Shown here one piece after another: positions 4,823-23,236 of a stretch of 23,956 nt of DNA. The notes below the pieces were generated by a model, which had not been told where the DNA came from, ran no database searches, and saw only the letters and a program-made list of their open reading frames with translations. Source of the stretch: a virus; the UHGV virus genome UHGV-0168080. One strand, written 5' to 3'. A program made the translations under genes and the position numbers. How positions within the stretch are numbered: position 1 is the stretch's first letter; each line of letters starts with the position of its first letter.

Positions 4823-5788
4823 TTAATTATCAGTAGATTGTTCCTCTAGTAACAACTCAATTTTGCTTAGTATTTCTTTAGATATTTTGCGGCTATCAAT
4901 TTTTATAGTTACAAAATTCCCTTTATATCTAGCCGTGATCCCTTCCCCATATTTTTTCTCGTCTTTTGTTTTTTCCTCGTCGCCAACCAGAACAGAGTCA
5001 GATAATATTTGTATAATCCGTGAAGCTTCTAAATCCTCGCCGTTTTTTTTTATTGTCAGAAGATGATGAGCAGCATTGCTCATGGCAGCCATGTTTTTTT
5101 TGTAAATCTTAAACAAAGAATCTCCAGCACGAGCTGACAGTTCTCCTGGATGATTGAAGATAGCTAATATATCTTTTGGTAGACCAGCTGTATTAATACA
5201 GCGAGTGATAATATTTCTATCTATATTTTCAGCCTCGGCCAATGCTTTAACGTTACCATCAAAGTCATTTAGCTTGCGTAAGTATCTCTTTCCTCTTTCG
5301 TATGCACTAATAGGCCTATAATCGTTACCAATTTGGGATAACCAATGCATCTGTTCATCGTCGAGATCACCAATTAAGACGCGATAGTCACATCCTGTTA
5401 ATATCGCTGCTTTTCTTCTACGTGAGCCGTCAGCGACTTCAACGATTCCAGATACTTTTCTGGCGAAAGCTGGATTTTGTTGTCCAGACGTTAGAAAAGA
5501 TGGGATTAAATCGGCTAGAGAGGATTCATTTAATAAATCTTGATCGCGTTCATTACCTAGCCATACCATTGTTGCCATTTCAACTTTATCTGCGGGAATT
5601 GTCTCTAACTTAAAGTTAACATTACGTCCGCATACTGGCAAAGTTATGCTGTTACCGGTTAATGAACTCAGTTGACGTTTTAAATCACCAACCATAGGTG
5701 ATACGGGCTGATGTTCAGGGGCATGATGATTATTACTCATAATGCGATTAATATCTGGAGCATTTTTTAGAAGAGAGCGCTGTTTCAT
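4823..5788 (-). CDS. sopB: Plasmid partition protein SopB (ParB family centromere-binding protein)
   Basis: 321 aa with F SopB-like blocks (ITLPVCGRNVNF, LGNERDQDLL, DGSRRRKAAILT, YRPISAYERG); start overlaps the sopA stop. Confidence 0.9.
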   Translation of the reverse strand: MKQRSLLKNAPDINRIMSNNHHAPEHQPVSPMVGDLKRQLSSLTGNSITLPVCGRNVNFKLETIPADKVEMATMVWLGNERDQDLLNESSLADLIPSFLTSGQQNPAFARKVSGIVEVADGSRRRKAAILTGCDYRVLIGDLDDEQMHWLSQIGNDYRPISAYERGKRYLRKLNDFDGNVKALAEAENIDRNIITRCINTAGLPKDILAIFNHPGELSARAGDSLFKIYKKNMAAMSNAAHHLLTIKKNGEDLEASRIIQILSDSVLVGDEEKTKDEKKYGEGITARYKGNFVTIKIDSRKISKEILSKIELLLEEQSTDN

Positions 5789-6954
5789 TATTCGTTCTCC
5801 CAGCGAGGTTTTATTAGATCATCAAAAATTTCTCTGCAAACAGGGTCCCATATAGAAACAGCATTTCTCCATGCATTCAATGTTGAACGTTGGTTTGCTG
5901 CTTGTTCAAATACTGTTCTCATTTTTATCTGGCCTTTACCTACTTCATCGGTAACGCGTACAACCTGACGTAATACCATTGATCCCCATGTATTTCTTAT
6001 TTGTTCTTCCATCCATCGTGATTGATTCCCTGTAGTGAGACTATATTTAGTCAGAAGTAAGCGAACGGTTGGCTCAAATCCACCTAGGTCAACGCTTTCC
6101 AATAGATCGAGAAGCATTGTGAAAAACTGTAGAACAGAAGCGTAATCAAATAATTCTGCAGGTGTAGCAACAACAATAACGTCAGCGGCACAAACAACGT
6201 TAATGGTTCCTGTACCGAGGTTCGGAGCACTATCTATAACGATAACATCGTAGTTATCCCAAACTGATTCAATAGCTGCGCGCAGCATAAGGTGTGGAGG
6301 ATGAGGCAATTTACCCTGAGCATGATATTGCATGAGATCTGTTTCTATACGATGTAAAGCTAGGCAGCTAGGGATAATGTCTAGCCCAGGCCAACATGTT
6401 GGCTTTATAGCATATTCAGCGTTATCGCGTTCTCCTAAGTAAAATGGCAGTAAAGTATCCTCGGCATGGATATGTAAATCAGGAACATAACCGTGATACA
6501 TAGAGGCTGTACCTTGAGGATCGTTACCTTCAACCAAAAGAACACGATGACCTTGTAATGCTAACCATTGAGCTTGATGTACCGCAGACGATGTTTTATA
6601 AACGCCGCCTTTGTGTGACATAACGGCAAGAACAACAGGGTTTTTATCTTGTGGTCGTTGGTTTGGGTTGCCAAAAACTGCTCGCATACTGTTGATTTGA
6701 TCTATGGTATAACCAGCACGACGTTCAATTCTTCCTCTCATTTCAAAGTCAGGTGCAGGTAAACGCCCGCTCTTCTCAGCATCTCTAATTGCTTGAGGAG
6801 TTACACCAATTAAATCTGCTACTTCAGTAATACCCCATCGGCGGGTGATACGCCGAGCTTCAGGACTATCATCACCGAATTGAGCGATAGCAATTGCTTG
6901 GGTCATTTCTTGACCTCTCGTAACACAATCTTGCAATAGCTTTTTCAAAGACAT
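5788..6954 (-). CDS. sopA: Plasmid partition ATPase SopA (type Ia ParA)
   Basis: 388 aa, collinear with F SopA as I recall it; deviant Walker A KGGVYKTS; N-terminal HTH extension (AIAIAQFGDDSPEARRITRRW); RBS GGAG upstream. Confidence 0.95.
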   Translation of the reverse strand: MSLKKLLQDCVTRGQEMTQAIAIAQFGDDSPEARRITRRWGITEVADLIGVTPQAIRDAEKSGRLPAPDFEMRGRIERRAGYTIDQINSMRAVFGNPNQRPQDKNPVVLAVMSHKGGVYKTSSAVHQAQWLALQGHRVLLVEGNDPQGTASMYHGYVPDLHIHAEDTLLPFYLGERDNAEYAIKPTCWPGLDIIPSCLALHRIETDLMQYHAQGKLPHPPHLMLRAAIESVWDNYDVIVIDSAPNLGTGTINVVCAADVIVVATPAELFDYASVLQFFTMLLDLLESVDLGGFEPTVRLLLTKYSLTTGNQSRWMEEQIRNTWGSMVLRQVVRVTDEVGKGQIKMRTVFEQAANQRSTLNAWRNAVSIWDPVCREIFDDLIKPRWENE

Positions 6955-6975
6955 ACTGTCATCTCCAGCTTGTAA

Positions 6976-7603: not shown

Positions 7604-9493
7604 ATGAGCAAAGTAAAAATCGGTGAATTAATAAACTCACTTGTTAGCGATGTTGAGTCAATAGATAACTCTGACCGTCCTCAAGGAGAGAAAACAAAAA
7701 AAATAAAGGCCGTTGCATTAAAATTTAAAAATACATTATTTAATGATAAGCGAAAGTTTAGGGGAAAAGGATTAGAAAAGAGAATTACAGCCAACACATT
7801 CAATTCCTATATGAGCAGGGCCAGAAAACGGTTTGATGATAAACTTCATCATAGTTTTGAAAAAAATATACATCGACTATCTGAAAAATATCCTTTATAT
7901 AATGAGGAGCTATTGTCATGGCTCTCTCTACCTGCTGCCGATATTCGCCGGAGAATGTCAGCTTTACAGGCAAAATTAAAATTAATTATTCCTCTGTCCG
8001 AAGATTTATCTAATATCAGAATTGGTGATAATAAAAATAATAATAAGTTAATAAAGTTATCAAATAAATATAAAGAATGGCAATTTGCCATTTCTGATTT
8101 AACTAGCGATAACTGGAAAGATAAACGCGATTATTTATATAAATTACTACAGCAAGGGTCAGCCTTGCTTGAGGAGTTGAATCAGTTAAAGGTTAACCAT
8201 GAGATTCTCTATCATCTCAAACTAAGCCCTGCCGAACGCGCATCTATCCAGCAACGATGGGCGGACGTACTACACAATAAGAAACGTAACGTAGTAGTCA
8301 TTGACTACCCTAAATATATGCAAGCTATTTACGATATTATAAATAGCCCTGCTACATTAAATAATCTAAACACTCGTTCAGGCATGGCTCCTTTGGCATT
8401 TGCTCTTGCTGCATTATCAGGAAGACGAATGATTGAGATTATGTATCAAGGTACATTTACTGTCTCTGGTAAGTATACCGTTGATTTTTTAGGTCAGGCT
8501 AAAAAAAGAACTACTGATGATGTAACCAGAAAAATATATACATTATGCGAAGCAAAAACGTTTGTTTATTTAATAAATGTACTTCGCTCATGCCCAGCAG
8601 CATCTGATTTTGATGAAGTCGTTATGGGTTACGGAAATAACGACACGCGGTCTGAAAACGGACGTATTAATGCCATATTGGCAAAGGCTTTTAATCCATG
8701 GGTTAAATCATTTTTCAATGATAATCGCCGTGTTTATAAAGATAGTCGTGCTATTTATGCCCGTATTGCGTATGAAATGTTTTTCCGCGTAGATCCCCGT
8801 TGGAAAAATGTAGATGAAGATGTTTTCTTTATGGAAATTTTAGGCCATGACGATGAAAACACTCAATTACACTATAAACAATTCAAGCTGGCCAACTTCT
8901 CAAAGACATGGAGGCCAAATACTGGAAACGAAAATACCAGGCTGGAAGCATTGCAGCTGCTTGATGACGAAATGCCTGGATTCGCCAGAGGAGATGCCGG
9001 GGTTCGTCTGCATAACACAGTTAAGCAGCTGGTAGAGCAGGACCCCTCTATAAAAATCACGAACAGCACTCTAAGAGCATTCAAATTTAGCCCAACAATG
9101 ATTAGTCGATACCTGGAATTTGCTGCTGATGCTCTGGGGCAATTTGTTGGCGAAAATGGACAATGGCAGCTGAAAATAGATACTCCAGAAATCGTTATGC
9201 CTGACGAAGAAGAGCTGGAAGCAATACCTGAACAGATGGATGAATTATCAGAGGATGACGATCTGGATGACGACGAAATTGAGATAGAGGAAGAGGAAGA
9301 GAGCGTAGAAGAACAGCAACCGCCAGCGCCTTCTTCACCTGTATCTAAGCCGGTATTTAAGCCTGTGAGAAATATTGGTGATGGCTCATACGTTGTTGAG
9401 TTTCATTATAATGGCCAGAATTATGCGTGGTCAGGCAGTGCAAACAGCCCCATGTCAGCAATGCAGTTAGCATGGCTGACATATTTCGGCTAA
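7604..9493 (+). CDS. telN: Protelomerase TelN (hairpin telomere resolvase)
   Basis: 629 aa; near-collinear with N15 TelN from the N-terminus (MSKVKIGELIN...DRPQG.KTK.IKA...NDKRKFRGKGL.KRITANTFN.YMSRARKRFDDKLHHSF) to the C-terminus; acidic C-terminal tail; RBS AGGAGAAG. Confidence 0.95.
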   Translation: MSKVKIGELINSLVSDVESIDNSDRPQGEKTKKIKAVALKFKNTLFNDKRKFRGKGLEKRITANTFNSYMSRARKRFDDKLHHSFEKNIHRLSEKYPLYNEELLSWLSLPAADIRRRMSALQAKLKLIIPLSEDLSNIRIGDNKNNNKLIKLSNKYKEWQFAISDLTSDNWKDKRDYLYKLLQQGSALLEELNQLKVNHEILYHLKLSPAERASIQQRWADVLHNKKRNVVVIDYPKYMQAIYDIINSPATLNNLNTRSGMAPLAFALAALSGRRMIEIMYQGTFTVSGKYTVDFLGQAKKRTTDDVTRKIYTLCEAKTFVYLINVLRSCPAASDFDEVVMGYGNNDTRSENGRINAILAKAFNPWVKSFFNDNRRVYKDSRAIYARIAYEMFFRVDPRWKNVDEDVFFMEILGHDDENTQLHYKQFKLANFSKTWRPNTGNENTRLEALQLLDDEMPGFARGDAGVRLHNTVKQLVEQDPSIKITNSTLRAFKFSPTMISRYLEFAADALGQFVGENGQWQLKIDTPEIVMPDEEELEAIPEQMDELSEDDDLDDDEIEIEEEEESVEEQQPPAPSSPVSKPVFKPVRNIGDGSYVVEFHYNGQNYAWSGSANSPMSAMQLAWLTYFG

Positions 9494-9665: not shown

Positions 9666-10448
9666 CTATTTATTGGTGATTTCTGCTGGCTTTAGCTGCG
9701 CGGATAACTGCTCAAGTTTTTGAACTGCCAGTTCAAAATGCGCGGGCAACGCCTTTTCCAGATCAGAGTTAATATCGGTGATGGGCAAATCACCACACGA
9801 CATACTCCGCCTACCCCCACGAACAACATCACGCAACAACTCTCGTTCATACGTGCGCATGTTCCCCAATGCCGACTCAGCAGCCGTTAAAATCCGGCGC
9901 AGTTCTGCCGTAATTGCTGGTAAATCATCAACCGTTATGGGGTTCGGGGATGGATTACGACACGCCCGACGCAAAGCCAACCATACACCGCTAATCCAGG
10001 CATTTCGGTACTGAAAACTTTGTGCTATATCGTTGATCAGCCCTCGCAGATACTCTTTCTGCCTCCAGTTCAACGGCTCTGCTGCTCGCATTGGCTCAGG
10101 TTCGACGTAAACGTACTCTCCATTCTTACGAATAGAGGGCAGGACCTCGTTCGTTACCCATTTACGAAACCGCCATGCAGTCGTGCCCTGTTTTACAGCG
10201 TCACGGCAGCGGAGGATCAGGGTGTATAGACCTGACTCTGAAATAATATTTAGCTTTTGCTCTCCGCCAGGGGTGTAACTTAAAGTTACACCCTTTTCAT
10301 CCTCATCCAGAGACATTAGCGCCTTCCGGGAGTTAACGAGTCTTAAAGCATCACATACATCCTTAGCCACAAACCACGGCTCGCCGTTAATCATCACTAC
10401 ACGAACCTGATGCTCTTCCTGAAAGGAAAAGACTGCTAACGCGCTCAT
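9666..10448 (-). CDS. Bro-N domain antirepressor (Ant-like)
   Basis: 260 aa; N-terminal Bro-N hallmarks (F.F......VRVVMINGEPWFVAKDVCDAL...LDEDEKG...GGEQKLNIISESGLYTLIL); strong RBS AAGGAGG; last gene of a three-gene operon with ATGA overlaps. Confidence 0.8.
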   Translation of the reverse strand: MSALAVFSFQEEHQVRVVMINGEPWFVAKDVCDALRLVNSRKALMSLDEDEKGVTLSYTPGGEQKLNIISESGLYTLILRCRDAVKQGTTAWRFRKWVTNEVLPSIRKNGEYVYVEPEPMRAAEPLNWRQKEYLRGLINDIAQSFQYRNAWISGVWLALRRACRNPSPNPITVDDLPAITAELRRILTAAESALGNMRTYERELLRDVVRGGRRSMSCGDLPITDINSDLEKALPAHFELAVQKLEQLSAQLKPAEITNK

Positions 10449-10836: not shown

Positions 10837-10891
10837 GGTATGCACTCCGTTTAATTGGTCGTGCTACCACCAGAGTTCTCACGCTCTTGAA

Positions 10892-10973
10892 TGGTGGTAG
10901 CCCAAGCGGGGGTGAGAATACCGGCAAACGAAGAAACCGGCCTGACCGAAGTCAGCCCCGCCTGAGCCACCAT
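10892..10973 (-). ncRNA. Structured RNA-like element A in the antirepressor operon leader (candidate c4/CA-type antisense immunity RNA or its target module)
   Basis: About 82 nt bounded by GGTGG...CCACCA; minus-strand fold gives a long closing stem and an internal hairpin CUGAC-UUCG-GUCAG. Paralogue of element B. Confidence 0.45.
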
Positions 10974-11207
10974 AAATCGGATATGCGCAGGTATATACAC
11001 ACAAAAAAACACGCTGGCGCGTGTTGTGCGCTTCGTTTATCCGGGTTCTCACGCCCGGCTGCGGGATTTACCGCAGCGGAATAACTTTACCGTCAAAACG
11101 ACGCACACGTCAATAATTTGCAAAGACATTTTACCCTGTGACCAGTCACGGGGATAGGTGTTTTTATAGTTTGCTTAAACAAATGATTAGAAGATAAACG
11201 ATATTGT

Positions 11208-11287
11208 GGTGGTAGCCCAGGCAGGGTTCTCAACACCGGCCCAAACGACACCGGCCAGCCTTTCGGCTGCCCCGCCTGAACTACCAT
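11208..11287 (-). ncRNA. Structured RNA-like element B, paralogue of element A
   Basis: Same architecture and end motifs (GGTGGTAGCCCA...CCCCGCCTGA); the internal hairpin is CAGCC-GAAA-GGCUG on the minus strand, so the stem is kept by compensatory changes. Confidence 0.45.
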
Positions 11288-11390
11288 TAGAATAATATAC
11301 AACAAAACGTAGCATTTTTATTACATTAAAATATAAATATTGTTTACACTTTACTTTACTAATGGGGCGGCTCGGGCTATCCTGATTTTG

Positions 11391-11406
11391 CTGTATAAAA
11401 ACACAG
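11391..11406. promoter_or_regulatory. LexA (SOS) box CTGTATAAAAACACAG upstream of cma
   Basis: Fits CTGT-N8-ACAG; lies about 60 bp upstream of the colicin M ATG, as is usual for colicin promoters. Confidence 0.6.
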
Positions 11407-11467
11407 TATTTATGCAGCGATTAAACCTGTATGTCTGTTATTTCATTAACTTATAAGGGTTTTTGAT

Positions 11468-12283
11468 ATGGATACTATCGTTGTGACAGCTCCATCACCA
11501 TCAACTAACTTACCGAGTTATGGTAATGGCGCATTTTCTCTCTCAGCACCACACGTGCCTGGTTCTGGCCCCCTTTTAGTCCAGGTGGTTTACAGCTTTT
11601 TCCAGAGCCCAAACATGTGTATTCAGGCTCTAACTCAGCTTGAGGACTACATCAAAAAACACGGTGCCAGCGATCCCCTGACATTACAAATTATGTCAAC
11701 AAATATTGCCTACTTCTGTAACGCTGACAGAAACCTTATCCTTCACCGCGGAATAAGTGTTTATGACGCCTACCACTTAGCTAAACCTGCGCCAAATAAA
11801 TATGACTATCGCTCAATGAATATGAAACAAATGAGCGGTAATGTCACAACACCAATTGTGGCGCTTGCACACTATTTATGGGGTAATGGTGCAGACCGAA
11901 GCGTTAATATCGCAAATATTGGTCTCAAAATTTCTCCGATGAAAATTAATCAGATAAGAGATATTGTAAAATCTGGTGTAGTAGGCACATTCCCTATTTC
12001 TACAAAATTCACACACGCCACTGGCGATTATAATGTTATTACCGGCGCATATCTTGGTAATATCACGCTGAAAACAGAAGGTACTTTAACTGTCTCCGCT
12101 AATGGCTCATGGACCTATAATGGCGTTGTTCGCTCGTATAACGACAAGTATGACTTCAATGCCAGCACTCATCGTGGCGTAATCGGAGAGTCTCTTACAA
12201 GGCTCGGGGCGATGTTCTCTGGTAAAGAGTATCAGATACTACTTCCTGGCGAAATTCACATTAAAGAAAGTGGCAAGCGATAA
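11468..12283 (+). CDS. cma: Colicin M (lipid II-targeting bacteriocin)
   Basis: 271 aa, same length as colicin M and collinear with it as I recall the sequence (..APSPSTNLPSYGNGAFSLSAPHVPG.GPLLVQVVYSFFQSPNMC.QALTQLEDYIKKHGAS ... ILLPGEIHIKESGKR). Confidence 0.93.
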   Translation: MDTIVVTAPSPSTNLPSYGNGAFSLSAPHVPGSGPLLVQVVYSFFQSPNMCIQALTQLEDYIKKHGASDPLTLQIMSTNIAYFCNADRNLILHRGISVYDAYHLAKPAPNKYDYRSMNMKQMSGNVTTPIVALAHYLWGNGADRSVNIANIGLKISPMKINQIRDIVKSGVVGTFPISTKFTHATGDYNVITGAYLGNITLKTEGTLTVSANGSWTYNGVVRSYNDKYDFNASTHRGVIGESLTRLGAMFSGKEYQILLPGEIHIKESGKR

Positions 12284-12284
12284 T

Positions 12285-12311
12285 AAAAAGGCCGGGATTC
12301 CGGCCTTTTTT
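12285..12311. terminator. Bidirectional intrinsic terminator between cma and cmi
   Basis: AAAAA-GGCCGG-GATT-CCGGCC-TTTTTT: GC stem with an A-tract before and a T-tract after. Confidence 0.75.
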
Positions 12312-12333
12312 ATGCAGTCTTTATACCGATGTA

Positions 12334-12690
12334 TCAATCATTTGCATATTCAACATAACCTTCCTTGCAATGGTACATTCCATAATACATTCTCTTACCT
12401 TCCGGGCCTTCGGCTTTAAATGGGACGAGAAGCGTTTTTTCATCTTTAACATCTGTTAAGCTTCTTTCAATCTTTTCCCACGTAATTTTTGGGGCTTCTG
12501 TACCGAGAAGTTGTACATCGTTATTCCAACGCGTTATTTTTTTCAAAAAGTCATTTTTTACAAATTCTCTTGCCTGTTCATCACTAACCTTATAGCACTC
12601 TGGGCCTTTATTAGATTCAGGCCAGAAAAATACAATAGCAAGAGCAATAATTGATAAAATCAAAATGATTTTTATGCTAATTACTTTCAT
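12334..12690 (-). CDS. cmi: Colicin M immunity protein Cmi
   Basis: 118 aa; N-terminal membrane anchor (ILILSIIALAIVFFW) and strong resemblance to Cmi (..YKVSDEQAREFVKND....WNNDVQLLGTE.PKITWEKIERSLTDV.DEKTLLVPFKAEGP.GKRMYYGMYHC.EGYVEYAND); convergent with cma. Confidence 0.9.
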   Translation of the reverse strand: MKVISIKIILILSIIALAIVFFWPESNKGPECYKVSDEQAREFVKNDFLKKITRWNNDVQLLGTEAPKITWEKIERSLTDVKDEKTLLVPFKAEGPEGKRMYYGMYHCKEGYVEYAND

Positions 12691-12817: not shown

Positions 12818-13213
12818 TTAGTCGGCTTTATGAGTATCAACCATATACTTCAACCAGTAATCAACAATCGGTTGCTCATCTACAGAATGTTTACCAGGTA
12901 TAACTCGCCAGCTATCTTGCGAAAATCTGCCGTACTTACGCGGGAATAGGCCTTTCTTTATCTCCCGCCATGTACTAGGAAAACCATCCACAAAAGTACC
13001 AATTAACAGGAGAGGGACAAAAATCAGAGCTACAAACCATCGTGCAAGAAAGTGTTCAACAACAACATTTTCACCGTTGTAGTAATACGCATACGCATCC
13101 AATATGCGAATTTTCCTTACCTTAAAAATAGCCTTATGCTGAGAACGACTTAACTTGATACGAATGTATCCCTTATCCAAAGGGGATTCGTATTTGTATG
13201 ATTGAACAGCCAT
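12818..13213 (-). CDS. Hypothetical protein with one predicted transmembrane helix (function unknown)
   Basis: ATG at 13213 lies 2 nt after the upstream stop (the ORF-track start at 13225 is an in-frame GTG); hydrophobic segment FLARWFVALIFVPLLLIGTFV; I recognise no family. Confidence 0.6.
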   Translation of the reverse strand: MAVQSYKYESPLDKGYIRIKLSRSQHKAIFKVRKIRILDAYAYYYNGENVVVEHFLARWFVALIFVPLLLIGTFVDGFPSTWREIKKGLFPRKYGRFSQDSWRVIPGKHSVDEQPIVDYWLKYMVDTHKAD

Positions 13214-13215
13214 TT

Positions 13216-13545
13216 TTAACCCCACTCACCATCAGCAAACAAAGCGTTATACTCTGATAATGGTAAATGATGCCCCTCAATTGCCAGATTAAGCCCCAAA
13301 TGGGTAGATGGGTGTTCCTTATCTGGCTCCTCCTCCCACAATTCAGAAGCTAAAGAAGCTAAACGCTCAGCCGCTTTCACGTAGTTTTCTGTCCTGAACC
13401 AACCCAAATTAATCCCACCATCAGTGATCTCCCAGGCAACTTTCTTCTCTTCTTCCTGAATAGCCTTAATGCGTCGATCGCATTCATCCCGGCAGAACTT
13501 CAGCTGACGGTAATCAAGTTTGTCCAAAAATGCAGTAGTAGACAT
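13216..13545 (-). CDS. Hypothetical acidic protein (function unknown), first gene of a coupled pair
   Basis: 109 aa; RBS GGAG 8 nt upstream; lies immediately downstream of repA on the same strand; I recognise no family. Confidence 0.65.
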   Translation of the reverse strand: MSTTAFLDKLDYRQLKFCRDECDRRIKAIQEEEKKVAWEITDGGINLGWFRTENYVKAAERLASLASELWEEEPDKEHPSTHLGLNLAIEGHHLPLSEYNALFADGEWG

Positions 13546-13603
13546 ATTTTTACTCCCCGTTCACCGAAAAATCACGATTTCCACATACGATAATATCCAC
13601 TGA

Positions 13604-16600
13604 TTACCCATAGAAAGCGCCCTGCTCTTCGTAGCTGCATGGGCTATTCCCGGTAATATATTCACGTAACCGCCGCAGTTCATTACTGGACAAGTGATCC
13701 ATGAACTCTGTTAGGTACAGAGATGCAAACGTCATAGCTATGCTGGCTGATGACCATGATGACATAGTGGCCAGCTCCTCACAGGAAAGCGCACTCATAG
13801 CCCAGGACTCAGGTACAGCCACCGGCAACACTGCCAAAGCCTCAGAAATTACTGAATGAGGGGCGTTTTGAACCTGCTCATTTGTGGATCGCGTTTTATC
13901 ATCCATATATATATTGAGATCCAAATCGCGATCCATTTCGATGGCGGTCTTCTCGGCTTTGCGCGTTTTCAGGGTTAGGCCATCTTTCTGACGCTGAGCA
14001 AGAATATCCAGCATAAATGCCGCTGATTCAGGCTCAACAAAACGCAAGGTTGGACGCTTATCGCCGTCTCTGCCACGACGTTTACCTGTTTTAAGGCCAA
14101 GAGAGTCGCAAATGTTTTTAAACAACGCTTCCGGCACTTTAGGCTTCCCTTTTGGCGTCATAAAACCACCAATGTGCAGAACGTTATTCAACAGGTCACG
14201 GCGTTCGGCTGTCATGAGGTTATCTCGAGCGAATTTGAGACGCTCCTGAGTCGCCTCGCCGGTCATAGTCTCAGGGTTGATACCGCAGTCGATAAAGTAC
14301 TGCCGGAGAGTTGCTGATTTAAGCGCATAGAAACCGCGCGCCCCGACTTCAACAGTAGGAGTAGCTTTTACCTTGTAGTCGATTATTCCAGGGAATTTAG
14401 TTTTAAAGACATCATCAGCCTGCTCGCGAGTCATCGCGGTCACTACAAAATATTGCCACTGTCCCGCCTGACGGTATGCGTAGGTAAAATTGATGGCTGC
14501 TTCTTCCCGGTCGTAACGACGAGCTGTTACCTCATCTAAAAGCATTGTTTCATAGCGGCGAACTTTGTCTCGAGCACCATCGAAATAGAATTTCAGCGTG
14601 CCTTCTTCAACCGGTAGTTTCAGTTCGTTCTCAATATCCCAGCGGACAAGTTTTGCCTGTTCTTCAAGCGTCAGCGCGCGTTTTTTTAGCAGTTCTTCAC
14701 GCTCTGATTCTTGTGGAGTTTCTGTATTGAGATGCAGATCCAGTGTCTGTTCCCACACAATATCCCGCGCTTCTTTACGCAGATCTTTACCGATATCATT
14801 CGCAGCATAATCGGTGGCCAGCGGCGATACCTTATAACCGTCGCTGTGCATGATGCAGATCATGTTGCTGGCGTAGTCGTTACGCGCAGACGCTTCAATT
14901 GCGGCTGCTTTAATTTTCATCCTGGTAAAGTCGGTATTGGCCACCCCCATTGATATACGGTCGCCATCGAAAACGACATCCGTCAGTTCACCGTTCATGC
15001 CTGCGGTAGCAAGCAATGCCTGGGCGAATGCTCGTTCTATTTTTTGCGGGTCAGTTTCACGTTTTGCGCGAGCTTTATCAAAGCCGATAATAAATTCTTT
15101 TGCTGTACGGTCGCGGCGTAGCATTTGCACTGCGTCGCTGGGTACAACTTCACCACAGAACATGCCGAAATGACGGTCAAAATGTTTTTGCTCAATCGAC
15201 ACGCCGGATGAAATAGACGGGCTATAAATCAGGCCGTCGTATTTTTTGACCATCTTTTTCGGTTGATTGGTAAATGCTTCAACTTCTGGCTCTGGTTTGT
15301 TTTTCTGGTTTACACACAGAAATTTCTTACCAGGAAAATGCATTCTCAGGGTGGCGGTCACATCTTCTGCAAAGGTGGAGCTGTCGGTGGCCAACATAAT
15401 TTTTTCGCCATCCGATACAGCTTTCACCACCTCGGTCATAATGCGATCTTTTTCTGTATAAAAAACCCGGATTGGCTCACCTGTTTCGCGGTTGCGAACA
15501 TCAACAGGTAATTCAATTACGTGGATCTGCAGCCATGCGGGTAAACCGAGTTCTTCGCGGCGTTTCATAGCCAGTTCAGCCAGGTCAACCAGCAGATCGT
15601 TCGCATCAGCATCCACCATGATTGGGTGTTGTTCCGTTCTGGCCAGCGCATCAATTAGCGTATTGAATACAGCCACCGGGTTTTCCATAGCCCGACCGGA
15701 AAGAACGGCACGTAGCCCTTGTGTTGCCTCGTCAAAGCCAAAATAGTCGTGCTGGCGCATCAACGGTTGCCAGCAGTTTTTAACAATCGAGTTTATGCAG
15801 ATGGTCAGTTTACTGGCGTATGGGGCCATTTCCTGATAGCCAGGGTCCTGATAGTGCAGGATATCGGCTTTTACACCTTTTCCTTCAGTCATCATTTCCC
15901 ACAGACCACCAATAAGGGAAACACGGTGAGCTACAGAGATACCACGTTCTGAGCTATGCATTAACGGTCGTAACAATCCAGTAGATTTGCCGGAACCCAT
16001 ACCAGCACGGACGATGACTATCCCCTGTAGTGATTGCACGTACTTCAGGACGTCATCGGTCATTACCGAAGTATCAAAACGCTTATAGGTGATATGTTGA
16101 GGGCGTTTATTGGGATCAGTTATGCGTTCGCTGAAAGAGCGCGGAGCCTGGGCAATACGGCACTTTTTATTCAGGCGACGGGCAATATGGTCTTTTACCG
16201 TAGCGCGATAGATATTTTCCAGCCCCATTTCACGCAGAACGATACAGAACATGTTAAATAAATCTGACGGGCTGTTAGGAACCGGACAGGTCAGCATGCC
16301 AATATCTACCGCTCTCAGCAGCTCTTTGGCAAAAGTACGGCGGTTATCCCGCTTAATTGTCTTCAGGCGGTTGAGTGTCAGAGATAGCAAATCAGTACCG
16401 GTTTTCAGGCGGTTTGCTGTTGCGAATAGTTGACGTGCTGTTTCACGAAGTCCACGTAGTTTGTGCAGGTCGTTGAAGTCACTGCACTCCATTTGCGGAT
16501 CGTCTTCAAAAGTTGGGTAGACGCAGCGGACATCGTTGAATTTAGATAAGATTTCATAGCCAGTCCGCAGGCCGGTATTCCCTTTTCCTTCTGTGGCAGA

Positions 16601-17599
16601 TTTCCGGTCATTATCCAGTGCGCAGGTGATTTTTGCCGCCGGGTACATGTTTACCAGTTGTTCCACAACATGAACCATGTTGTTAGCGGATACAGCGACA
16701 ACCACAGCGTCAAAGCGTTTATCTTTTTTCGTGGCAAGCCAGATGGATGCACCAGTAGCAAAACCTTCTGTAACAGCGATGTTTTGCGCCCCTTTCAGCT
16801 CACCGATAACAAAGCAGGCACCGACGAAATCGCCGCTGGTTACTGCGCTGGTCTGGTATTTCCCACCTTGTTTGTCGATTCGCTGCCAACCCACAATACG
16901 ACCATCATAACGACCGTCCAGGTGAGCCAGAGGGATAGCCATATATGTGGTTGGCCCCCGGCTCCATTTCGCACTGTCGTGACTGGTCACGCGACGCACA
17001 TCACATGAACTAAAAACGTCACGAATACCTTTTTTAATCGCATATGGCCATGAGCCGTCTTCAGCCTGAGCATGTTCCCACGCGCTGTGGAATGCCAGCC
17101 ATCCCAGCAAACGTTCATGGTCCATTTGGTTGTTTTTCAGGTCATTAATTCGTTTTTGTTCTTCACGGCGACGACGTGCTTCGGCCTGACGTTCTATTCT
17201 TTCCCGTTCTTCTTCCGGTTGTGCGACCACGGTCGCATTATTCCGTTGTTGCTCACGGCGATATTCAGAAAACAGGAAGGAGAAACCGCTCCATGAGCCA
17301 GCATCGCTGCCTTTATGGACGAAGTTAATGAACGGGTAATCAATCCCTTTGCTGTGTTCCAGCCTGGAGTAAATTTCTACGCGTCCTTTCAGGCTCTTTT
17401 CGAGAGCTTCTGGAGATGTTTTATTGTATGAAGAGTAACGCTCAACCCCCCCGCGAGGGTTGAGTTGGATGTTGTCGGAACAGGCAGGCCAGTTGATACC
17501 AGCCATCTGTGCCAGCTCGGTTAGTTCATCCCGTGCTGCTTCAATTAGCGAGAACGGATCGCTGCCAAAGCGATCCGCATAGAAATCGTTTAATGTCAT
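13604..17599 (-). CDS. repA: Replication protein RepA (multidomain primase-helicase, N15 RepA-like)
   Basis: 1331 aa; Walker A GMGSGKSTG inside a helicase-like core; size and position (upstream of cB, same strand) match N15 repA. Confidence 0.92.
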   Translation of the reverse strand: MTLNDFYADRFGSDPFSLIEAARDELTELAQMAGINWPACSDNIQLNPRGGVERYSSYNKTSPEALEKSLKGRVEIYSRLEHSKGIDYPFINFVHKGSDAGSWSGFSFLFSEYRREQQRNNATVVAQPEEERERIERQAEARRRREEQKRINDLKNNQMDHERLLGWLAFHSAWEHAQAEDGSWPYAIKKGIRDVFSSCDVRRVTSHDSAKWSRGPTTYMAIPLAHLDGRYDGRIVGWQRIDKQGGKYQTSAVTSGDFVGACFVIGELKGAQNIAVTEGFATGASIWLATKKDKRFDAVVVAVSANNMVHVVEQLVNMYPAAKITCALDNDRKSATEGKGNTGLRTGYEILSKFNDVRCVYPTFEDDPQMECSDFNDLHKLRGLRETARQLFATANRLKTGTDLLSLTLNRLKTIKRDNRRTFAKELLRAVDIGMLTCPVPNSPSDLFNMFCIVLREMGLENIYRATVKDHIARRLNKKCRIAQAPRSFSERITDPNKRPQHITYKRFDTSVMTDDVLKYVQSLQGIVIVRAGMGSGKSTGLLRPLMHSSERGISVAHRVSLIGGLWEMMTEGKGVKADILHYQDPGYQEMAPYASKLTICINSIVKNCWQPLMRQHDYFGFDEATQGLRAVLSGRAMENPVAVFNTLIDALARTEQHPIMVDADANDLLVDLAELAMKRREELGLPAWLQIHVIELPVDVRNRETGEPIRVFYTEKDRIMTEVVKAVSDGEKIMLATDSSTFAEDVTATLRMHFPGKKFLCVNQKNKPEPEVEAFTNQPKKMVKKYDGLIYSPSISSGVSIEQKHFDRHFGMFCGEVVPSDAVQMLRRDRTAKEFIIGFDKARAKRETDPQKIERAFAQALLATAGMNGELTDVVFDGDRISMGVANTDFTRMKIKAAAIEASARNDYASNMICIMHSDGYKVSPLATDYAANDIGKDLRKEARDIVWEQTLDLHLNTETPQESEREELLKKRALTLEEQAKLVRWDIENELKLPVEEGTLKFYFDGARDKVRRYETMLLDEVTARRYDREEAAINFTYAYRQAGQWQYFVVTAMTREQADDVFKTKFPGIIDYKVKATPTVEVGARGFYALKSATLRQYFIDCGINPETMTGEATQERLKFARDNLMTAERRDLLNNVLHIGGFMTPKGKPKVPEALFKNICDSLGLKTGKRRGRDGDKRPTLRFVEPESAAFMLDILAQRQKDGLTLKTRKAEKTAIEMDRDLDLNIYMDDKTRSTNEQVQNAPHSVISEALAVLPVAVPESWAMSALSCEELATMSSWSSASIAMTFASLYLTEFMDHLSSNELRRLREYITGNSPCSYEEQGAFYG
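13885..13935. other. Candidate internal replication origin element inside the 3' end of repA
   Basis: 9-bp inverted repeat TGGATCGCG (13885-13893) / CGCGATCCA (13927-13935) flanking an (AT)5 tract. Confidence 0.3.
17222..17237. repeat. sopC-like centromere box TGCGACC-AC-GGTCGCA (candidate SopB binding site) inside repA
   Basis: 16-bp palindrome with the same architecture as the F sopC core TGGGACC-AC-GGTCCCA. Confidence 0.5.
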
Positions 17600-17647
17600 T
17601 TTTTAGCCATTCCATGCGAATTATGTTTTTTCGGGTTGAAAAAATCC

Positions 17648-17715
17648 GCAGGAGCAGCCACAATAAACGCATCTTGAATTGACGGAATCTGTCGCGTTGT
17701 TGTGGCTGCTTCCTG
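17648..17715. repeat. Long imperfect inverted repeat in the repA leader
   Basis: GCAGGAGCAGCCACAATAAACGC ... GCGTTGTTGTGGCTGCTTCCTG, arms about 22 bp, spacer about 23 bp. Confidence 0.5.
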
Positions 17716-17722
17716 AAAAGGA

Positions 17723-17750
17723 CCCGAGTTTGCCGACTCGGGTTTTTTTT
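17723..17750 (+). terminator. Strong intrinsic terminator on the plus strand, antisense to the repA leader
   Basis: Stem ACCCGAGT/ACTCGGGT, loop TGCCG, followed by T8. Confidence 0.6.
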
Positions 17751-17844
17751 CGTCTTTTTTCTGCTGCTGTAACCTGAGTCAACCCACAGAACATATGCCC
17801 TGCATTAAACCAGATTTACAGCAAACAATAAACCCCGTATTAAG

Positions 17845-18441
17845 TCATCTACCCTCAACCATGAATGATTTGATCGTTCCGACTATTTGGTGAACAAATT
17901 CAAGATCGCTTTTCCTGAAGATGGCGCGTTGTGAGTTTGTTCCATCCAGATAGTAATTTTCATCATCAAAACGGGCCAGGCGCTGGATAGTGATATTTCC
18001 TGCAGTATCACGAACCAGAACATCCTCGCCGGGGACCAGTTCCAGCGCAGAATCGACCAGGAGAAAATCGCCTGGCTGATAGTTTCCCTGCGTAAGATTG
18101 CTGATAGTTAACGCATAAACAGTATTGCGCTGGCTGATGAATGGCAGGAATCGCTCAGTATTTGGAACCTGTCCTGGCTTCCACTCTTCATCAGGTCCAC
18201 TTTCAGTTGTGCCAATAACAGGAATGCGATCAGGGTCATATTCTGTCCCATACAGCACCCAATGCACTGGCTTGCGTAAGCATTTAGCCAGGGCAATACC
18301 TATCTCCAGTGACGGCATTACGTCGCCACGTTCTAAGTTTTGGACGCCTGCAATAGAGATATCGACAGCCTCAGCAACTTCTCGCAACGTCAGCTTCATC
18401 TCTAAACGGCGTGCTTTCAGTCGTTCGCCTCGTGTTTTCAT
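17845..18441 (-). CDS. cB: Prophage repressor CB (CI-like: N-terminal XRE HTH plus C-terminal LexA/S24-like domain)
   Basis: 198 aa; HTH LTLREVAEAVDISIAGVQNLERG; C-terminal region aligns by eye to the LexA/CI fold; divergent from cro across an operator region. Confidence 0.85.
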   Translation of the reverse strand: MKTRGERLKARRLEMKLTLREVAEAVDISIAGVQNLERGDVMPSLEIGIALAKCLRKPVHWVLYGTEYDPDRIPVIGTTESGPDEEWKPGQVPNTERFLPFISQRNTVYALTISNLTQGNYQPGDFLLVDSALELVPGEDVLVRDTAGNITIQRLARFDDENYYLDGTNSQRAIFRKSDLEFVHQIVGTIKSFMVEGR

Positions 18442-18463
18442 AGCTTAATCATAAATGATCTTC

Positions 18464-18505
18464 TTATAGCTGGCTATAAAATTTATTTATTATAGCTGGC
18501 TTTAA
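18464..18505. promoter_or_regulatory. Tandem palindromic operators TTATAGC-TG-GCTATAA between cB and cro
   Basis: Perfect copy at 18464-18479 and near-perfect copy (TTATAGCTGGCTTTAA) at 18490-18505, 26 bp centre-to-centre. Confidence 0.6.
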
Positions 18506-18532
18506 TTGTTGTTTATTGTTTATAATAACAAC

Positions 18533-18754
18533 ATGAAACCAGAAGAACTTATTCGCCACTTTGGCAGTGTAGAAAAAGCAGCGGCAGGGGTAGGTGTAAC
18601 ACCCGGAGCTGTTTACCAATGGTTAACCGCTGGAGAGATTCCTTCATTGCGGCAAAGCGATATTGAAGTTCGTACTGCTTATAAGCTGAAGAGTGACTTT
18701 ACAACTCGGCGGGTAAAGCAGTCGATTAAGGAGAGTCGTAAGCGTGGAGCTTGA
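18533..18754 (+). CDS. cro: Cro-like repressor (HTH)
   Basis: HTH segment GSVEKAAAGVGVTPGAVYQWL; divergent from cB. The ATG at 18533 has no clear SD (the ORF-track start at 18506 is TTG), so the start is uncertain. Confidence 0.6.
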   Translation: MKPEELIRHFGSVEKAAAGVGVTPGAVYQWLTAGEIPSLRQSDIEVRTAYKLKSDFTTRRVKQSIKESRKRGA

Positions 18755-19454
18755 GTATATACGCAGCTGCGTCTCTACGGCATTGGCTGATGTTCATTAT
18801 CGCCAGCGTGGCATTCTGGAGGTCCAGCTTGAGCAGATGCGTCTCGGTAGATCAGGACGGTTTAACAATAAACCAGTCCGGTCAATCAGTGTGGGGGATG
18901 ATAACTCATACGAAGTGTCCGTTCCTGCTGAGCCGGTAAGATTCCACCAGGGGAAAACATTTAAACAATCATCAATGTTGCTCACTGATATTGATTTTCA
19001 GAGCGCCAGCTGGCGCAGGGCTATTGGTCAGTTGAATAACGAGGAATCAGCCTGGCTTTATTATTGCTACGGATGCAAGCCAGATTACAACAATGATGTG
19101 ATTGTTTGTCAGTGGTTATGGCTTGATTTTCTGGTTGCTCATTCGGGGGGCGGCTTTAAAAAAATGAAGGCCTCCACGAAAAAAGCCATGCGGAAATTGA
19201 TTTATTACGCGGCACAGCAGGTTAAATCAGAACTTACGTGTGCTGAGGCAGTTGATGAGAGAGAACAGGACAGGCATCTGAGTTTTCTGCTGAATATATC
19301 TATTGATAGCTGGAGACAAGATTATAAAGAACGCTGGCTTTTAATTAAGTCGCGATGTCTGAGCTTAAATCGAACTGCATTATTAAATGCGGCGGAGAAG
19401 CGCAGTGAAATCATCAAACGCCATCGGGCAGGAAGTGCCATTCTGCCTTTGTAA
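18744..19454 (+). CDS. Putative late-gene antiterminator (Q-like by position) or unknown early protein
   Basis: 236 aa; GTG start with strong RBS AAGGAGAG; lies directly after cro as Q does in N15. The family is not confirmed from sequence. Confidence 0.35.
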   Translation: MELEYIRSCVSTALADVHYRQRGILEVQLEQMRLGRSGRFNNKPVRSISVGDDNSYEVSVPAEPVRFHQGKTFKQSSMLLTDIDFQSASWRRAIGQLNNEESAWLYYCYGCKPDYNNDVIVCQWLWLDFLVAHSGGGFKKMKASTKKAMRKLIYYAAQQVKSELTCAEAVDEREQDRHLSFLLNISIDSWRQDYKERWLLIKSRCLSLNRTALLNAAEKRSEIIKRHRAGSAILPL

Positions 19455-19707
19455 ACAAGTTATGTTCAGGAAACCGTCGAAGCCAGAATTAAGGTATTCG
19501 GGGGTAAGAAATGAATATGTTATCTGGTGTCCAACTTGTGGTTACAGGACACGACCAGATAGTAATAAGCAGTCTGTAATTGCCGATTGGTATTTATCAA
19601 ATCAGCCAGGTAATAAGCATATAGAAAATCTTTGGATTAAGCGTTACTTGGAAATCAGAGAGGGTGCGACCGTGGTCGCACAAGAAAATGAAAATAACGC
19701 CATTTAA
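19387..19707 (+). CDS. Small putative zinc-ribbon protein (start uncertain)
   Basis: Cys pairs CLC...CPTC; the 5' end overlaps the preceding gene, and the true start may be internal (ATG at 19462). Confidence 0.45.
   Translation: MRRRSAVKSSNAIGQEVPFCLCKQVMFRKPSKPELRYSGVRNEYVIWCPTCGYRTRPDSNKQSVIADWYLSNQPGNKHIENLWIKRYLEIREGATVVAQENENNAI
19664..19681. repeat. sopC-like centromere box GTGCGACC-GT-GGTCGCAC (second copy)
   Basis: 18-bp palindrome with 8-bp arms and the same core as the copy at 17222. Confidence 0.5.
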
Positions 19708-19717
19708 GCAGGGGCCG

Positions 19718-19891
19718 ATGACGCATGATGAAGCAGAGCGTCTTTCAGATACTTATCGGCGGCGTGGTAAGAAAGTTCTGGTTGTTCGTTCTGATTTTTT
19801 AGGTGATGGATATTGCGTTTATGTTCATTTACCTGAATCAGAAAGAACGCCAAAACCATCCAGAACATATCAACAGAAAATTTGGGTATAG
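19718..19891 (+). CDS. Small hypothetical protein
   Basis: ATG at 19718 with AGGGG 4 nt upstream; alternative in-frame starts at 19664 (GTG) and 19688 (ATG). Confidence 0.35.
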   Translation: MTHDEAERLSDTYRRRGKKVLVVRSDFLGDGYCVYVHLPESERTPKPSRTYQQKIWV

Positions 19892-19914
19892 ATAAACGTT
19901 GAGGAGAATTATTC

Positions 19915-20514
19915 GTGACTAATCAGATTATTTACGACAGGAAACGGTCTGATGTAATGATTGACCTTGAAACAATGGGTACTAACACATGTGCTCCAAT
20001 TGTTTCTATCGGGGCAGTGTTTTTTTCTCCAGAAAATGAGGAATTAGGTCCTACTTTTTATGTGCCAGTGAATCTCAGAAGCTCGATGTTGAATGGTGGT
20101 GTCGCCGATGGTGATACCATTTTATGGTGGTTGAAACAGAGCAAGGAAGCCAGAGCCGCAATTTGTACTAATGATGCCCTTGATATTAAGGATGCACTTT
20201 TTGAATTATCACACTTTATTACTTGCCATGCATGTAATTTAAAAAAATTGAAAGTATGGGGAAATGGAGCAACGTTCGATAATGTAATTTTACGCGGTGC
20301 TTATGAGCGCGTTGGCTTAGCCTGTCCGTGGGAATATTTTAATGATCAGGATGTTCGAACAATCGTTAATCTTGGTCAGTTTATTGGTTTTAATCCTAAA
20401 AAAGATATGCCATTTGATGGCGAACGACACAATGCCCTGGCTGATGCTATTCATCAGGCTAAATATGTATCCGCAATTTTCTCCCGTCTTGTAAAAGGGC
20501 AAGGAGAATCGTAA
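19915..20514 (+). CDS. DEDDh-family 3'-5' exonuclease
   Basis: Motifs MIDLETMG (Exo I D-x-E) and ERHNALADA (Exo III H-x4-D); GTG start with RBS GAGGAG (alternative ATG at 19957). Confidence 0.75.
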   Translation: MTNQIIYDRKRSDVMIDLETMGTNTCAPIVSIGAVFFSPENEELGPTFYVPVNLRSSMLNGGVADGDTILWWLKQSKEARAAICTNDALDIKDALFELSHFITCHACNLKKLKVWGNGATFDNVILRGAYERVGLACPWEYFNDQDVRTIVNLGQFIGFNPKKDMPFDGERHNALADAIHQAKYVSAIFSRLVKGQGES

Positions 20515-22137: not shown

Positions 22138-22551
22138 ATGAGCACTTTTACCGACAAAGAACTGATTAAAGAAATCAAAGAGCGCATAGGCAGCCTGGAC
22201 GTGAGAGACAATATTGAGCGCCGGGCTTATGAAATAGCGTTAGCCTCGCTGGAAGCAGAACCGGTGGCATGGCTGCATTCAGACAATGGCTTAGGTATTC
22301 CGGCAATAACCCGGAGTAAAAACATTGCTGACAGTTGGTTATCAAAGGGCTGGTATGTTCAGTCATTATATGTAGCCCAGCCACTGCCGGTGGTGCCGGA
22401 TGATAATCGTATTCAGTTTTCTGTTTCACTTCCTGCAGCGTTTGGTGGAGATAAATATTTTATTGATGGTGTATTTCAACCTTTGAGATATGAGCGTGAC
22501 TGTGAAAGGGCGGTTGTGGCCGCTGGCGGTGTAGTTAATTGGGTTAAGTAA
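22138..22551 (+). CDS. Hypothetical protein, paralogue of the previous gene
   Basis: ATG with RBS AGGAG; motif IALASLEAEPVAW. Confidence 0.7.
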   Translation: MSTFTDKELIKEIKERIGSLDVRDNIERRAYEIALASLEAEPVAWLHSDNGLGIPAITRSKNIADSWLSKGWYVQSLYVAQPLPVVPDDNRIQFSVSLPAAFGGDKYFIDGVFQPLRYERDCERAVVAAGGVVNWVK

Positions 22552-22566
22552 TTTTCAGGAGGATTT

Positions 22567-22893
22567 ATGGCGCTGACACCGGCAGAACGGCAAAGGAGAC
22601 GCAGGGAACGGTTGAAGAAGGAAGGCACATCAAGACGGGACTGGATTCTAGAACCTGACGAGTTACGTATGTTGGGGGAAATTTGTGTATTGCGTAGACC
22701 AGGGCGAGTTCCATATTCGGAGAACGAAGTCATTGGTTTGCTGATCAGGAAAAACTATAAGGAGCTGCAGAAGCAGCTATCTACTACTTGCCCGCGATGT
22801 GGTCAAAAAATGCCTGTTTCAGAATGCATTTTTGATGGCGAAGGCTCATGCCACCTTACAACCACGAGGTTGAAACTTGCGCTCAAAGCGTGA
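22567..22893 (+). CDS. Hypothetical basic protein with C-terminal Cys cluster
   Basis: RBS AGGAGG; Arg-rich N-terminus (ERQRRRRERLKKEG) and CPRCG...C..C near the C-terminus. Confidence 0.65.
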   Translation: MALTPAERQRRRRERLKKEGTSRRDWILEPDELRMLGEICVLRRPGRVPYSENEVIGLLIRKNYKELQKQLSTTCPRCGQKMPVSECIFDGEGSCHLTTTRLKLALKA

Positions 22894-22911
22894 CTGGTCA
22901 CGGAGGGATAA

Positions 22912-23154
22912 ATGGATAAAAAGGCATTGCTTTTTGAAATGATACGAAAACGGAGCGAAAAGAGCTTTTCTGATGGTGGTGATGGGTTTGTTTTCGCTTC
23001 GATGCTTGCTTTTGATGTTGGGTTAAATAGCAGAATTGTTAAAAGGATGCTTGATTCTGCTGTCCGTACTGGACTTCTTGAGAAAGCTGATCGTGGCATA
23101 GGGAGAGAGCATAAGTATCGGGCCACACAGCAGTTTACGCAGTTAATTCATTGA
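22912..23154 (+). CDS. Hypothetical small protein
   Basis: RBS GGAGGG 5 nt upstream; 80 aa. Confidence 0.6.
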   Translation: MDKKALLFEMIRKRSEKSFSDGGDGFVFASMLAFDVGLNSRIVKRMLDSAVRTGLLEKADRGIGREHKYRATQQFTQLIH

Positions 23155-23236
23155 AAATTGACCGTAAAGTTTGAGTTTTACCCTGTAATTTTATACAGTA
23201 TAAATAACCTTTTTTAGTTAAATGGTATGAGATTTA

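Follow-up and report, generated by a model that had tools for sequence, protein, structure and literature searches.

The centromere of plasmid F, sopC, consists of 10-12 tandem 43-bp repeats that are located immediately downstream of sopB, and the linear plasmid-prophage N15 reportedly possesses four dispersed SopB-binding centromere sites, as described by Ravin and Lane in 1999 (J Bacteriol 181:6898); Grigoriev and Lobocka are also said to have dealt with these sites, IR1-IR4, in 2001 (Mol Microbiol 42:355). The N15 site found within the replication gene repA is alone sufficient for sopAB-dependent stable inheritance (PMC2847241), and N15 SopB forms foci on an array of four IR sites (4xIR), with which F SopB is non-functional (PMC7205306). 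In the GenBank record of phage phiKO2 (AY374448; Casjens et al. 2004), the label "putative plasmid partitioning site" is given to four 18-bp features. One is inside repA (gene 35), one follows Q (gene 38), one immediately precedes the late promoter and one follows gene 58, and all four positions are orthologous to those of N15 IR1-IR4. Here we analyzed a stretch of 23,956 nucleotides of the UHGV virus genome UHGV-0168080 (hereafter the window), which, judged from its sequence, is part of an N15-like linear plasmid-prophage of Escherichia coli, and in which the palindrome TGCGACCACGGTCGCA (TGCGACC-AC-GGTCGCA) is located inside repA at 17222-17237. This palindrome is very probably one of several dispersed parS-like centromere sites that belong to the type Ia SopABC partition system of an N15-like linear phage-plasmid. 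Such a site is already known, since publications on N15 describe the phenomenon, the sequence, the position in repA and the function, and phiKO2 carries the corresponding annotation. The sites and genes concerned are:

17222..17237, no strand: predicted centromere site, orthologue of N15 IR1; a palindrome at repA codons 121-126 whose flanks match the N15 IR1 oligonucleotide (PMC7205306 Table 4)
19665..19680, no strand: predicted centromere site, orthologue of N15 IR2; a palindrome positioned after Q, with a phiKO2 annotation at the orthologous position
13604..17599, minus strand: repA, a primase-helicase of 1331 aa, with its ATG at 17599
4823..5788, minus strand: sopB, a ParB-family centromere-binding protein of 321 aa and the predicted binder of the palindrome (Pfam SoPB_HTH, E = 8.5e-25)
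5788..6954, minus strand: sopA, a ParA-type Walker ATPase of 388 aa and the motor partner of SopB (Pfam AAA_31, CbiA and ParA), whose orthologue is annotated as sopA in pS159-3

The initial annotation of this stretch had placed a palindrome with the F sopC architecture and one substitution per arm inside repA, and both points hold: the palindrome is exact at 17222-17237, within the open reading frame (ORF) 13604..17599, and it differs by one base per arm from TGGGACCACGGTCCCA, the F sopC core as printed in PMC3597684. On the sense strand of repA it reads aaT GCG ACC GTG GTC GCA, which are codons 121-126 for N-A-T-V-V-A. The window contains two exact matches to TGCGACC-NN-GGTCGCA, compared to 0.05 expected from dinucleotide-preserving shuffles. 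The second match, TGCGACC-GT-GGTCGCA at 19665-19680, was missed initially; it is intergenic, 211 nt downstream of the ORF for a Q-like antiterminator, and with G at -1 and C at +17 it forms a full 18-bp palindrome, while the copy in repA, with G at -1 and T at +17, matches 17 of the 18 positions of the consensus G-TGCGACC-NN-GGTCGCA-C. Position 3 is C and position 14 is G in both copies, whereas position 3 is G in the F sopC core (TGGGACC-AC-GGTCCCA).

The palindrome was also said to lie far from the sop operon, next to which there would be no repeat array. The distance between the repA site and sopA is 10.3 kb, with an intact telRL, the protelomerase target, in between (7392-7433). Neither a tandem array near sopAB nor the 43-bp array downstream of sopB that is typical of F-type sopC was found by Tandem Repeats Finder (4200-7000), and relaxed motif and half-site scans revealed no further motif copies beside sopAB (4823..6954). 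Isolated TGCGACC half-sites are found at 2802 and 20995, a number within chance expectation, and no F-type sites with one mismatch or fewer are present in the window or in five N15-like genomes. On the linear prophage map of Escherichia phage PhiR46_1 (46.3 kb), the site is at 7.9 kb and sopBA is at 43.7-45.8 kb; these coordinates place sopAB and the repA site near opposite ends of the linear prophage.

In N15 (AF064539), exactly four matches to the same pattern are found: at 33480 inside gene 37 (repA), at 35931 after gene 40 (Q), at 41125, where the annotated -35 of the late promoter follows about 20 nt downstream, and at 45562 after gene 58. These are the centromere sites IR1-IR4. The published IR1 oligonucleotide is TTCTTCTTCCGGCTG-TGCGACCACGGTCGCA-CCATTCCGTTG and that of IR2 is AAAGAGGG-TGCGACCTCGGTCGCA-CGAGATAATGAA (PMC7205306 Table 4), and the corresponding window sequences are tcttcttccggttg-TGCGACCACGGTCGCA-ttattccgttg and agagaggg-TGCGACCGTGGTCGCA-caagaaaatgaa. 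The flanks of both window sites match the N15 IR1/IR2 genomic sequence as well as the published oligonucleotides. Because they share position and flanks with N15 IR1 and IR2, the sites at 17222 and 19665 are, by sequence comparison, orthologues of these two members of an experimentally established centromere class, in agreement with the initial proposal of a dispersed, sopC-like SopB site as in N15. The N15 and window elements have in common the 16-bp palindrome, its positions in repA and after Q, the homologous flanks, the dispersed arrangement and the lack of an array beside sopAB. They differ in DNA sequence (about 76% identity over repA-cB-cro-Q), in the central dinucleotide of IR2, which is TC in N15 and GT in the window, and in the number of sites, as N15 has four and the closest complete relatives of the window have five. 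The first two partitioning features of phiKO2 are orthologous to the window sites, although the phiKO2 features are predictions, its host is Klebsiella and its DNA is 74% identical to that of the window. The IR1-type site of the window is identical to N15 IR4 and one outer base off the deposited N15 IR1. The deposited N15 IR1 begins with A (AGCGACC...), as in two Enterobacter elements, in contrast to the T of the published oligonucleotide; the window site, unlike the deposited one, is a perfect 16-mer.

Conservation in related elements had been set beforehand as one test of the proposal. Comparison with ten relatives (N15, PhiR46_1, phiKO2, Kpn74, Kpn_R1, 48ST307 and plasmids of E. cloacae, E. 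hormaechei, C. freundii and a Citrobacter species) reveals that the IR1- and IR2-type sites are kept at orthologous positions in all ten, while their flanks diverge, and an adapted form of the repA site is present in the more distant PY54. In the intergenic IR2, the arms are invariant in the ten relatives and the central dinucleotide is GT, TC, AC, GC or AT. The repA codon alignment covers about 565 codons (1.7 kb) of eight sequences that share 73-79% of their nucleotides with the window, and only one of its fully invariant runs is longer than the palindrome. Among fourfold-degenerate codons with a conserved amino acid, the third position is invariant in only 9 of 120 (7.5%), but it is invariant in all four inner codons of the palindrome, GCG, ACC, GTG and GTC (p ~3e-5 against the 7.5% background). 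Immediately before these four codons, the amino acid is N, G, H, C or R depending on the sequence, but the codon is always NNT, and its T forms the outer end of the palindrome; among the 13 columns with at least four different amino acids, this is the sole one with an invariant third position. The 17222 palindrome is therefore under strong purifying selection at the DNA level, and with a centromere site inside repA, selection on DNA holds the encoded pentapeptide constant as well as the synonymous positions.

When 25 distinct sites are pooled, positions 2-7 and 10-16 are invariant except for one site with C3 changed to A, and the consensus is the 18-bp palindrome G-TGCGACC-NN-GGTCGCA-C, which agrees with the 18 bp contacted by F SopB in its crystal structure (PMC2910045). 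The genome-wide search for TGCGACC-N2-GGTCGCA that the initial annotation had suggested, run on complete relatives, returned four or five dispersed copies in each: five in PhiR46_1 and in pS159-3, the closest complete record, and four each in N15, phiKO2 and the E. cloacae element. All copies in these five genomes are located between repA and the end of the lysis region, and none is found beside sopAB or in the structural genes. The window's element should have its third site about 0.1 to 0.7 kb beyond the end of the window.

The protein that is predicted to recognize these sites is 73% identical to N15 SopB, and 3MKY, 3MKW and 3MKZ, the solved structures of F SopB and SopB-sopC, match it over its central and C-terminal domains. 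The centromeres of N15 and F differ by one nucleotide per half-site, and all specificity determinants reside in residues 179-200 of N15 SopB (177-198 in F SopB); Arg190, Arg195 and Arg219 (F numbering) make conserved guanine contacts, and the residues beside Arg190, which differ between N15 and F, are modeled as readers of the variable base (Schumacher et al., PMC2910045). The corresponding segment of the window SopB comprises residues 178-199 (GNVKALAEAENIDRNIITRCIN), and in comparison with N15 residues 179-200 the window has ...AENIDRNIITRCIN. The D-R-N around the Arg190 equivalent is the same in the window as in N15 and phiKO2, while IITRCIN, the remainder of the helix, resembles F, so that the match to N15 is confined to the residues modeled to read the variable base and does not extend over the whole segment. 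The three arginines (R191, R196 and R220 in window numbering) are invariant in alignments of the helix-turn-helix region. A D-R-N helix is found together with TGCGACC sites in the window, PhiR46_1, N15, phiKO2 and E. cloacae, and an S-R-K helix is found together with TGGGACC sites in F and PY54, a co-variation that agrees with the specificity-swap experiments cited in PMC2910045. The window SopB is only 83% identical to that of PhiR46_1 (43667-44656), with most differences in the C-terminal half, in contrast to about 97% for the rest of the shared DNA; this divergence suggests mosaic exchange within sopB, and D-R-N is kept.

More distant phages with telomeres behave as a SopB-family centromere predicts. 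A protein search with the RepA N-terminus identifies Yersinia phage PY54 (47% identity), VP882 (30%) and phiHAP-1 (28%). PY54 encodes SpyA and SpyB, the latter 56% identical to the window SopB and with the S-R-K helix of F type, and its genome contains 8 perfect and 3 near-perfect F-type palindromes TGGGACC-NN-GGTCCCA in a dispersed arrangement (about 11 in all). At the homologous codons of PY54 repA (about codon 122), the sequence is ACT GGG ACC ACG GTC CCA, encoding T-G-T-T-V-P, compared to N-A-T-V-V-A in the N15 group. PY54 thus keeps the architecture and position of the palindrome while the peptide becomes G-T-T-V-P, which implies that RepA changed to accommodate the site and, as read from the sequences, that the specificity base switched together with the recognition helix. 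PY54 and the window have in common the palindrome at homologous repA codons, the dispersed copies and a SopB-homologous partner; PY54 differs in its TGGGACC arms, the S-R-K helix and the number of approximately 11 copies, with repA containing a second copy and spyB a hybrid one. The hybrid (22251-22266), TGGGACC-GT-GGTCGCA, has one F-type arm and one N15-type arm. In VP882, no SopB homologue was found (only a small unrelated ParA), no such palindrome exists genome-wide (the best match has 3 mismatches) and RepA has a 5-residue gap at the palindrome position. This pattern in PY54 and VP882 is the one predicted by a SopB-family centromere and not by the models of a hairpin or a coding constraint discussed below.

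Compared with F sopC, the window sites have the same 16-bp inverted repeat with a 7-2-7 layout, homologous SopA and SopB and the conserved arginines R190, R195 and R219 (F numbering), but they are single, dispersed and distant from sopAB, and one is intragenic. Chromosomal parS sites, which are bound by ParB/Spo0J, are also 16-bp palindromes with dispersed copies, some of them inside genes, each of which nucleates a ParB complex; these are the sites on which Lin and Grossman reportedly worked in 1998. They differ from the window sites in sequence (TGTTNCACGTGAAACA), in the chromosomal ParB subfamily that is involved and in being clustered around the origin.

Based on the N15 and F systems, we propose that a dimer of the element's own SopB (4823-5788) recognizes the 16-18-bp inverted repeat via its helix-turn-helix (residues 178-199) together with the secondary arginine R220, in which the D-R-N around R191 would select C at arm position 3, as the S-R-K of F SopB would select G. 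Site-bound SopB would then nucleate a larger partition complex by spreading and bridging, and the SopA ATPase (5788-6954) would place low-copy prophage copies in both daughter cells. The IR1-type site at 17222 would cooperate with the IR2-type site at 19665 and with two or three copies beyond the window. Several points weigh against this proposal. The site at 17222 is imperfect relative to the 18-bp consensus, with T instead of C at +17, and the outermost base of IR1 is A and not T in N15 and the two Enterobacter elements, which indicates that the outermost positions tolerate change. The co-variation of helix and site is a single evolutionary switch and not many independent events. The sequence of the site, its non-random occurrence, its orthology with IR1 or IR2, the selection on DNA and the helix-site co-variation are direct observations, whereas SopB binding, spreading and partition are attributed to the window's element by analogy, with binding and centromere function drawn from the N15 literature.

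The conservation of A-T-V-V-A among N15-like RepA proteins might suggest that the palindrome is a by-product of coding constraint, or a product of chance, without any function at the DNA level. We regard such an origin as extremely unlikely: the synonymous third positions are frozen in 4 of 4 codons against 7.5% and the flanking codon varies its amino acid but keeps its T, the same 16-mer recurs in non-coding DNA, the palindromic architecture stays in PY54 where the peptide becomes G-T-T-V-P, and chance predicts 0.05 matches per window. Shuffles, the synonymous-site test and the PY54 comparison thus led us to reject this explanation. That the palindrome acts as a hairpin, either as a stem-loop in the repA messenger RNA (mRNA; an attenuator, an RNase site or a stability element) or as a DNA cruciform, is little more credible, although both copies fold into a 6-7-bp stem with a 4-nt loop (-11 and -12.6 kcal/mol, z-scores -1.9 and -3.7) and the N15 record annotates IR4 as a "putative rho-independent terminator" stem-loop. 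Any perfect palindrome would fold in this way, however; a U-tract follows neither copy, and a terminator scan of 16800-20000 reports neither site. Of the four would-be loop positions, 7 and 10 are invariant in all 25 distinct sites and 8 and 9 vary; the former two are those tested for SopB (PMC3597684), and their invariance beside two free positions is the pattern expected of base contacts by SopB. In addition, the copies are found in either orientation relative to transcription and both inside and outside coding sequence, and the G/C switch at position 3 tracks the recognition helix of the partner protein, which a hairpin does not predict. A hairpin or intrinsic terminator was hence rejected: the stem forms, but there is no T-run and the loop bases are invariant.

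The remaining explanation concerns a regulatory role, either as the main function of the site or in addition to partition. The initial annotation had suggested that a site inside the replication gene could couple partition-complex assembly with repA transcription, for which the SopB complex in repA would silence or block repA transcription and thereby tie replication to partition assembly. The site is about 0.37 kb inside repA and about 0.5 kb downstream of the presumed repA promoter/CB operator region that controls cB and repA, the cB-repA intergenic region contains a terminator-like hairpin at 17715-17750 ahead of the repA ATG at 17599, and IR1 and IR2 bracket the immB region (cB-cro-Q) with a conserved spacing of about 2.44 kb. 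The late-gene effect of N15 Sop is said to involve IR2, IR3 and Q-dependent antitermination. Spreading of ParB-family proteins from their sites, by which neighboring genes can be silenced (PMC7205306), might in principle extend to the repA promoter, and the title of Ravin, Rech and Lane (2008) states that N15 sop facilitates late gene expression. That regulatory link, however, concerns late genes and not repA, and no open paper summarizing it was found in our literature search. The conservation of the position within repA even in PY54 would fit such coupling but is explained equally well if a site, once embedded in a tolerant linker, is hard to relocate. Furthermore, N15-based vectors with repA and the site replicate normally when sopAB is supplied (PMC2847241). 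Regulation of repA by the SopB site is consequently considered improbable, and a dispersed centromere remains the preferred explanation.

The results re-identify a trait of N15-like elements, namely centromere sites that are scattered through the replication, immunity and late-control region and not located beside sopAB, and show the same layout in a widespread lineage of these elements in E. coli. The repA-embedded centromere is older than the split between N15 and PY54, and its specificity was switched along with the binding protein. It also provides an example of dual coding in which a protein-binding DNA site overrides codon choice and dictates the peptide, A-T-V-V-A in the N15 group and G-T-T-V-P in PY54. 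The frozen synonymous sites, the switch in PY54 and the peptide that follows the DNA add comparative detail that would not surprise a specialist. As the sites are unannotated in most database records of these phage-plasmids, rule-based annotation is possible.

The one invariant run of the repA alignment that exceeds the sop site in length is CGCGTGACCAGTCACGA (window 16977-16993), which contains a different palindrome, CGTGAC-CA-GTCACG (16978-16991), 244 nt downstream of the IR1-type site in repA and also with frozen synonymous positions. Other copies of CGTGAC-NN-GTCACG in the window are at 11137-11150 (one mismatch) and 22889-22902, and exactly three orthologous copies each are found in N15 (28549, 33236 and 39268), phiKO2 (31181, 36061 and 41938), PhiR46_1, pS159-3 and the E. 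cloacae element. The motif is absent from PY54 and VP882 and is not annotated in the N15 or phiKO2 records. It has no mention in the searchable literature, where a sequence search gave irrelevant primer matches only, and a scan of viral contigs gave mostly chance single matches; the family is apparently previously undescribed. Its half-sites resemble matS, the site of MatP, but the spacer is 2 bp instead of 3, and matS is not claimed; the SlmA site, considered as another identity, is not claimed either.

The copy at 11137 is located in the leader of an anti-repressor operon, between a C4 antisense RNA and an isrK-like RNA. On the minus strand, Rfam identifies C4 antisense RNAs at 11291-11205 and 10977-10890, with an isrK-like Hfq-binding RNA at 11077-11004 between them, and these RNAs (10890-11291) constitute the leader of the operon of the anti-repressor (Bro-N/AntB-like, 9666-10448); a sigma-70-like promoter, TTGACG-N18-TAAAGT (identified by eye), fits the 5' end of isrK. 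The copy at 22889 overlaps the stop of the ORF 22567-22893 (phrog_536, "transcriptional regulator"), and the palindrome is directly adjoined by the ribosome-binding site of the next ORF (22912-23154, 80 aa), for which Pfam, PDB and PHROG searches give weak, sub-threshold winged-helix matches and a single-sequence AlphaFold model has a low pLDDT of 57.5. The products of these two ORFs are candidate binders of the palindrome.

At homologous repA codons, PY54 contains at 30984-30999 a near-perfect SpyB/F-type site, TGGGACC-GT-GGTCACA (sense strand), the left arm of which is supplied by a 12-nt (V-W-D-R) insertion. Its spacing from the IR1-type site is 256 nt (244 + 12), compared to 244 nt for the second palindrome in the window, and an evolutionary link may exist between the sop palindromes and the CGTGAC-NN-GTCACG family. 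The first ~650 bp of repA might form a compound cis-acting hub that combines a SopB site with CGTGAC-NN-GTCACG, a proposal that we hold to be rather doubtful. If the three copies served an as yet undescribed phage regulator as operators, or represented a former centromere that has diverged, control of partition, replication and anti-immunity would be interleaved within repA, and if the hub exists, the suggested coupling would be right in a broader sense.

Over 13000-20500, the window is 97% identical to PhiR46_1 and YDC107_1 (a Ravinvirus) and about 76% identical to N15, phiKO2 and many plasmids of Klebsiella, Enterobacter and Citrobacter. In RepA, which is annotated in relatives as "plasmid replication protein, CyRepA1 family", a Toprim domain is found at residues 274-383 and a helicase/origin-binding domain at 521-674, and the 17222 site is N-terminal to the Toprim domain, adjoining a charged low-complexity stretch. 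Other genes of the element, which also encodes cro beside cB and Q, include:

7604-9493: protelomerase
17845-18441, minus strand: cB, a CB-type repressor
18744..19454: Q-like antiterminator (PF06323, E = 4e-84)

The telRL target is a perfect 42-bp palindrome, and as it is uncut, the window is in the phage or a circular-assembly configuration; degenerate 13-bp repeats (AATAAAGAACACA-like) at 7238-7384 flank it. A 26-bp tandem repeat, TTATAGCTGGCTATAAAAGTTATTTA, at 18464-18517 between cB and cro represents the CB/Cro operator palindromes of the immB switch. In YDC107_1 (CP025712), an inverted duplication of the telN-repA segment (28383 and 45081) provides a second, fragmented repA and a sixth copy of the palindrome, and it is probably an assembly artefact caused by read-through of the hairpin telomere.

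A cargo module at 11391-12690 contains a colicin M homologue (11468-12283; PF14859, E = 8e-145), which is preceded by a LexA box, CTGTATAAAAACACAG, at 11391-11406 and followed by a convergent YebF-like ORF (12334-12690) that is possibly the colicin M immunity protein; PhiR46_1 has a Spackle-like gene in place of this module. A second LexA box, CTGTAATTTTATACAG, at 23183-23198 is located downstream of a gp47-like ORF and upstream of a small plus-strand ORF, which corresponds to the PhiR46_1 coding sequence (CDS) 13275-13478. This small ORF is plausibly antC, the SOS-controlled anti-repressor that Mardanov and Ravin reportedly described for N15 in 2007. The Rfam RNA family IS009 gives a strong match (199 bits) at 4558-4756 in the tail-fibre-assembly region, where it overlaps the ORF 4215-4790.

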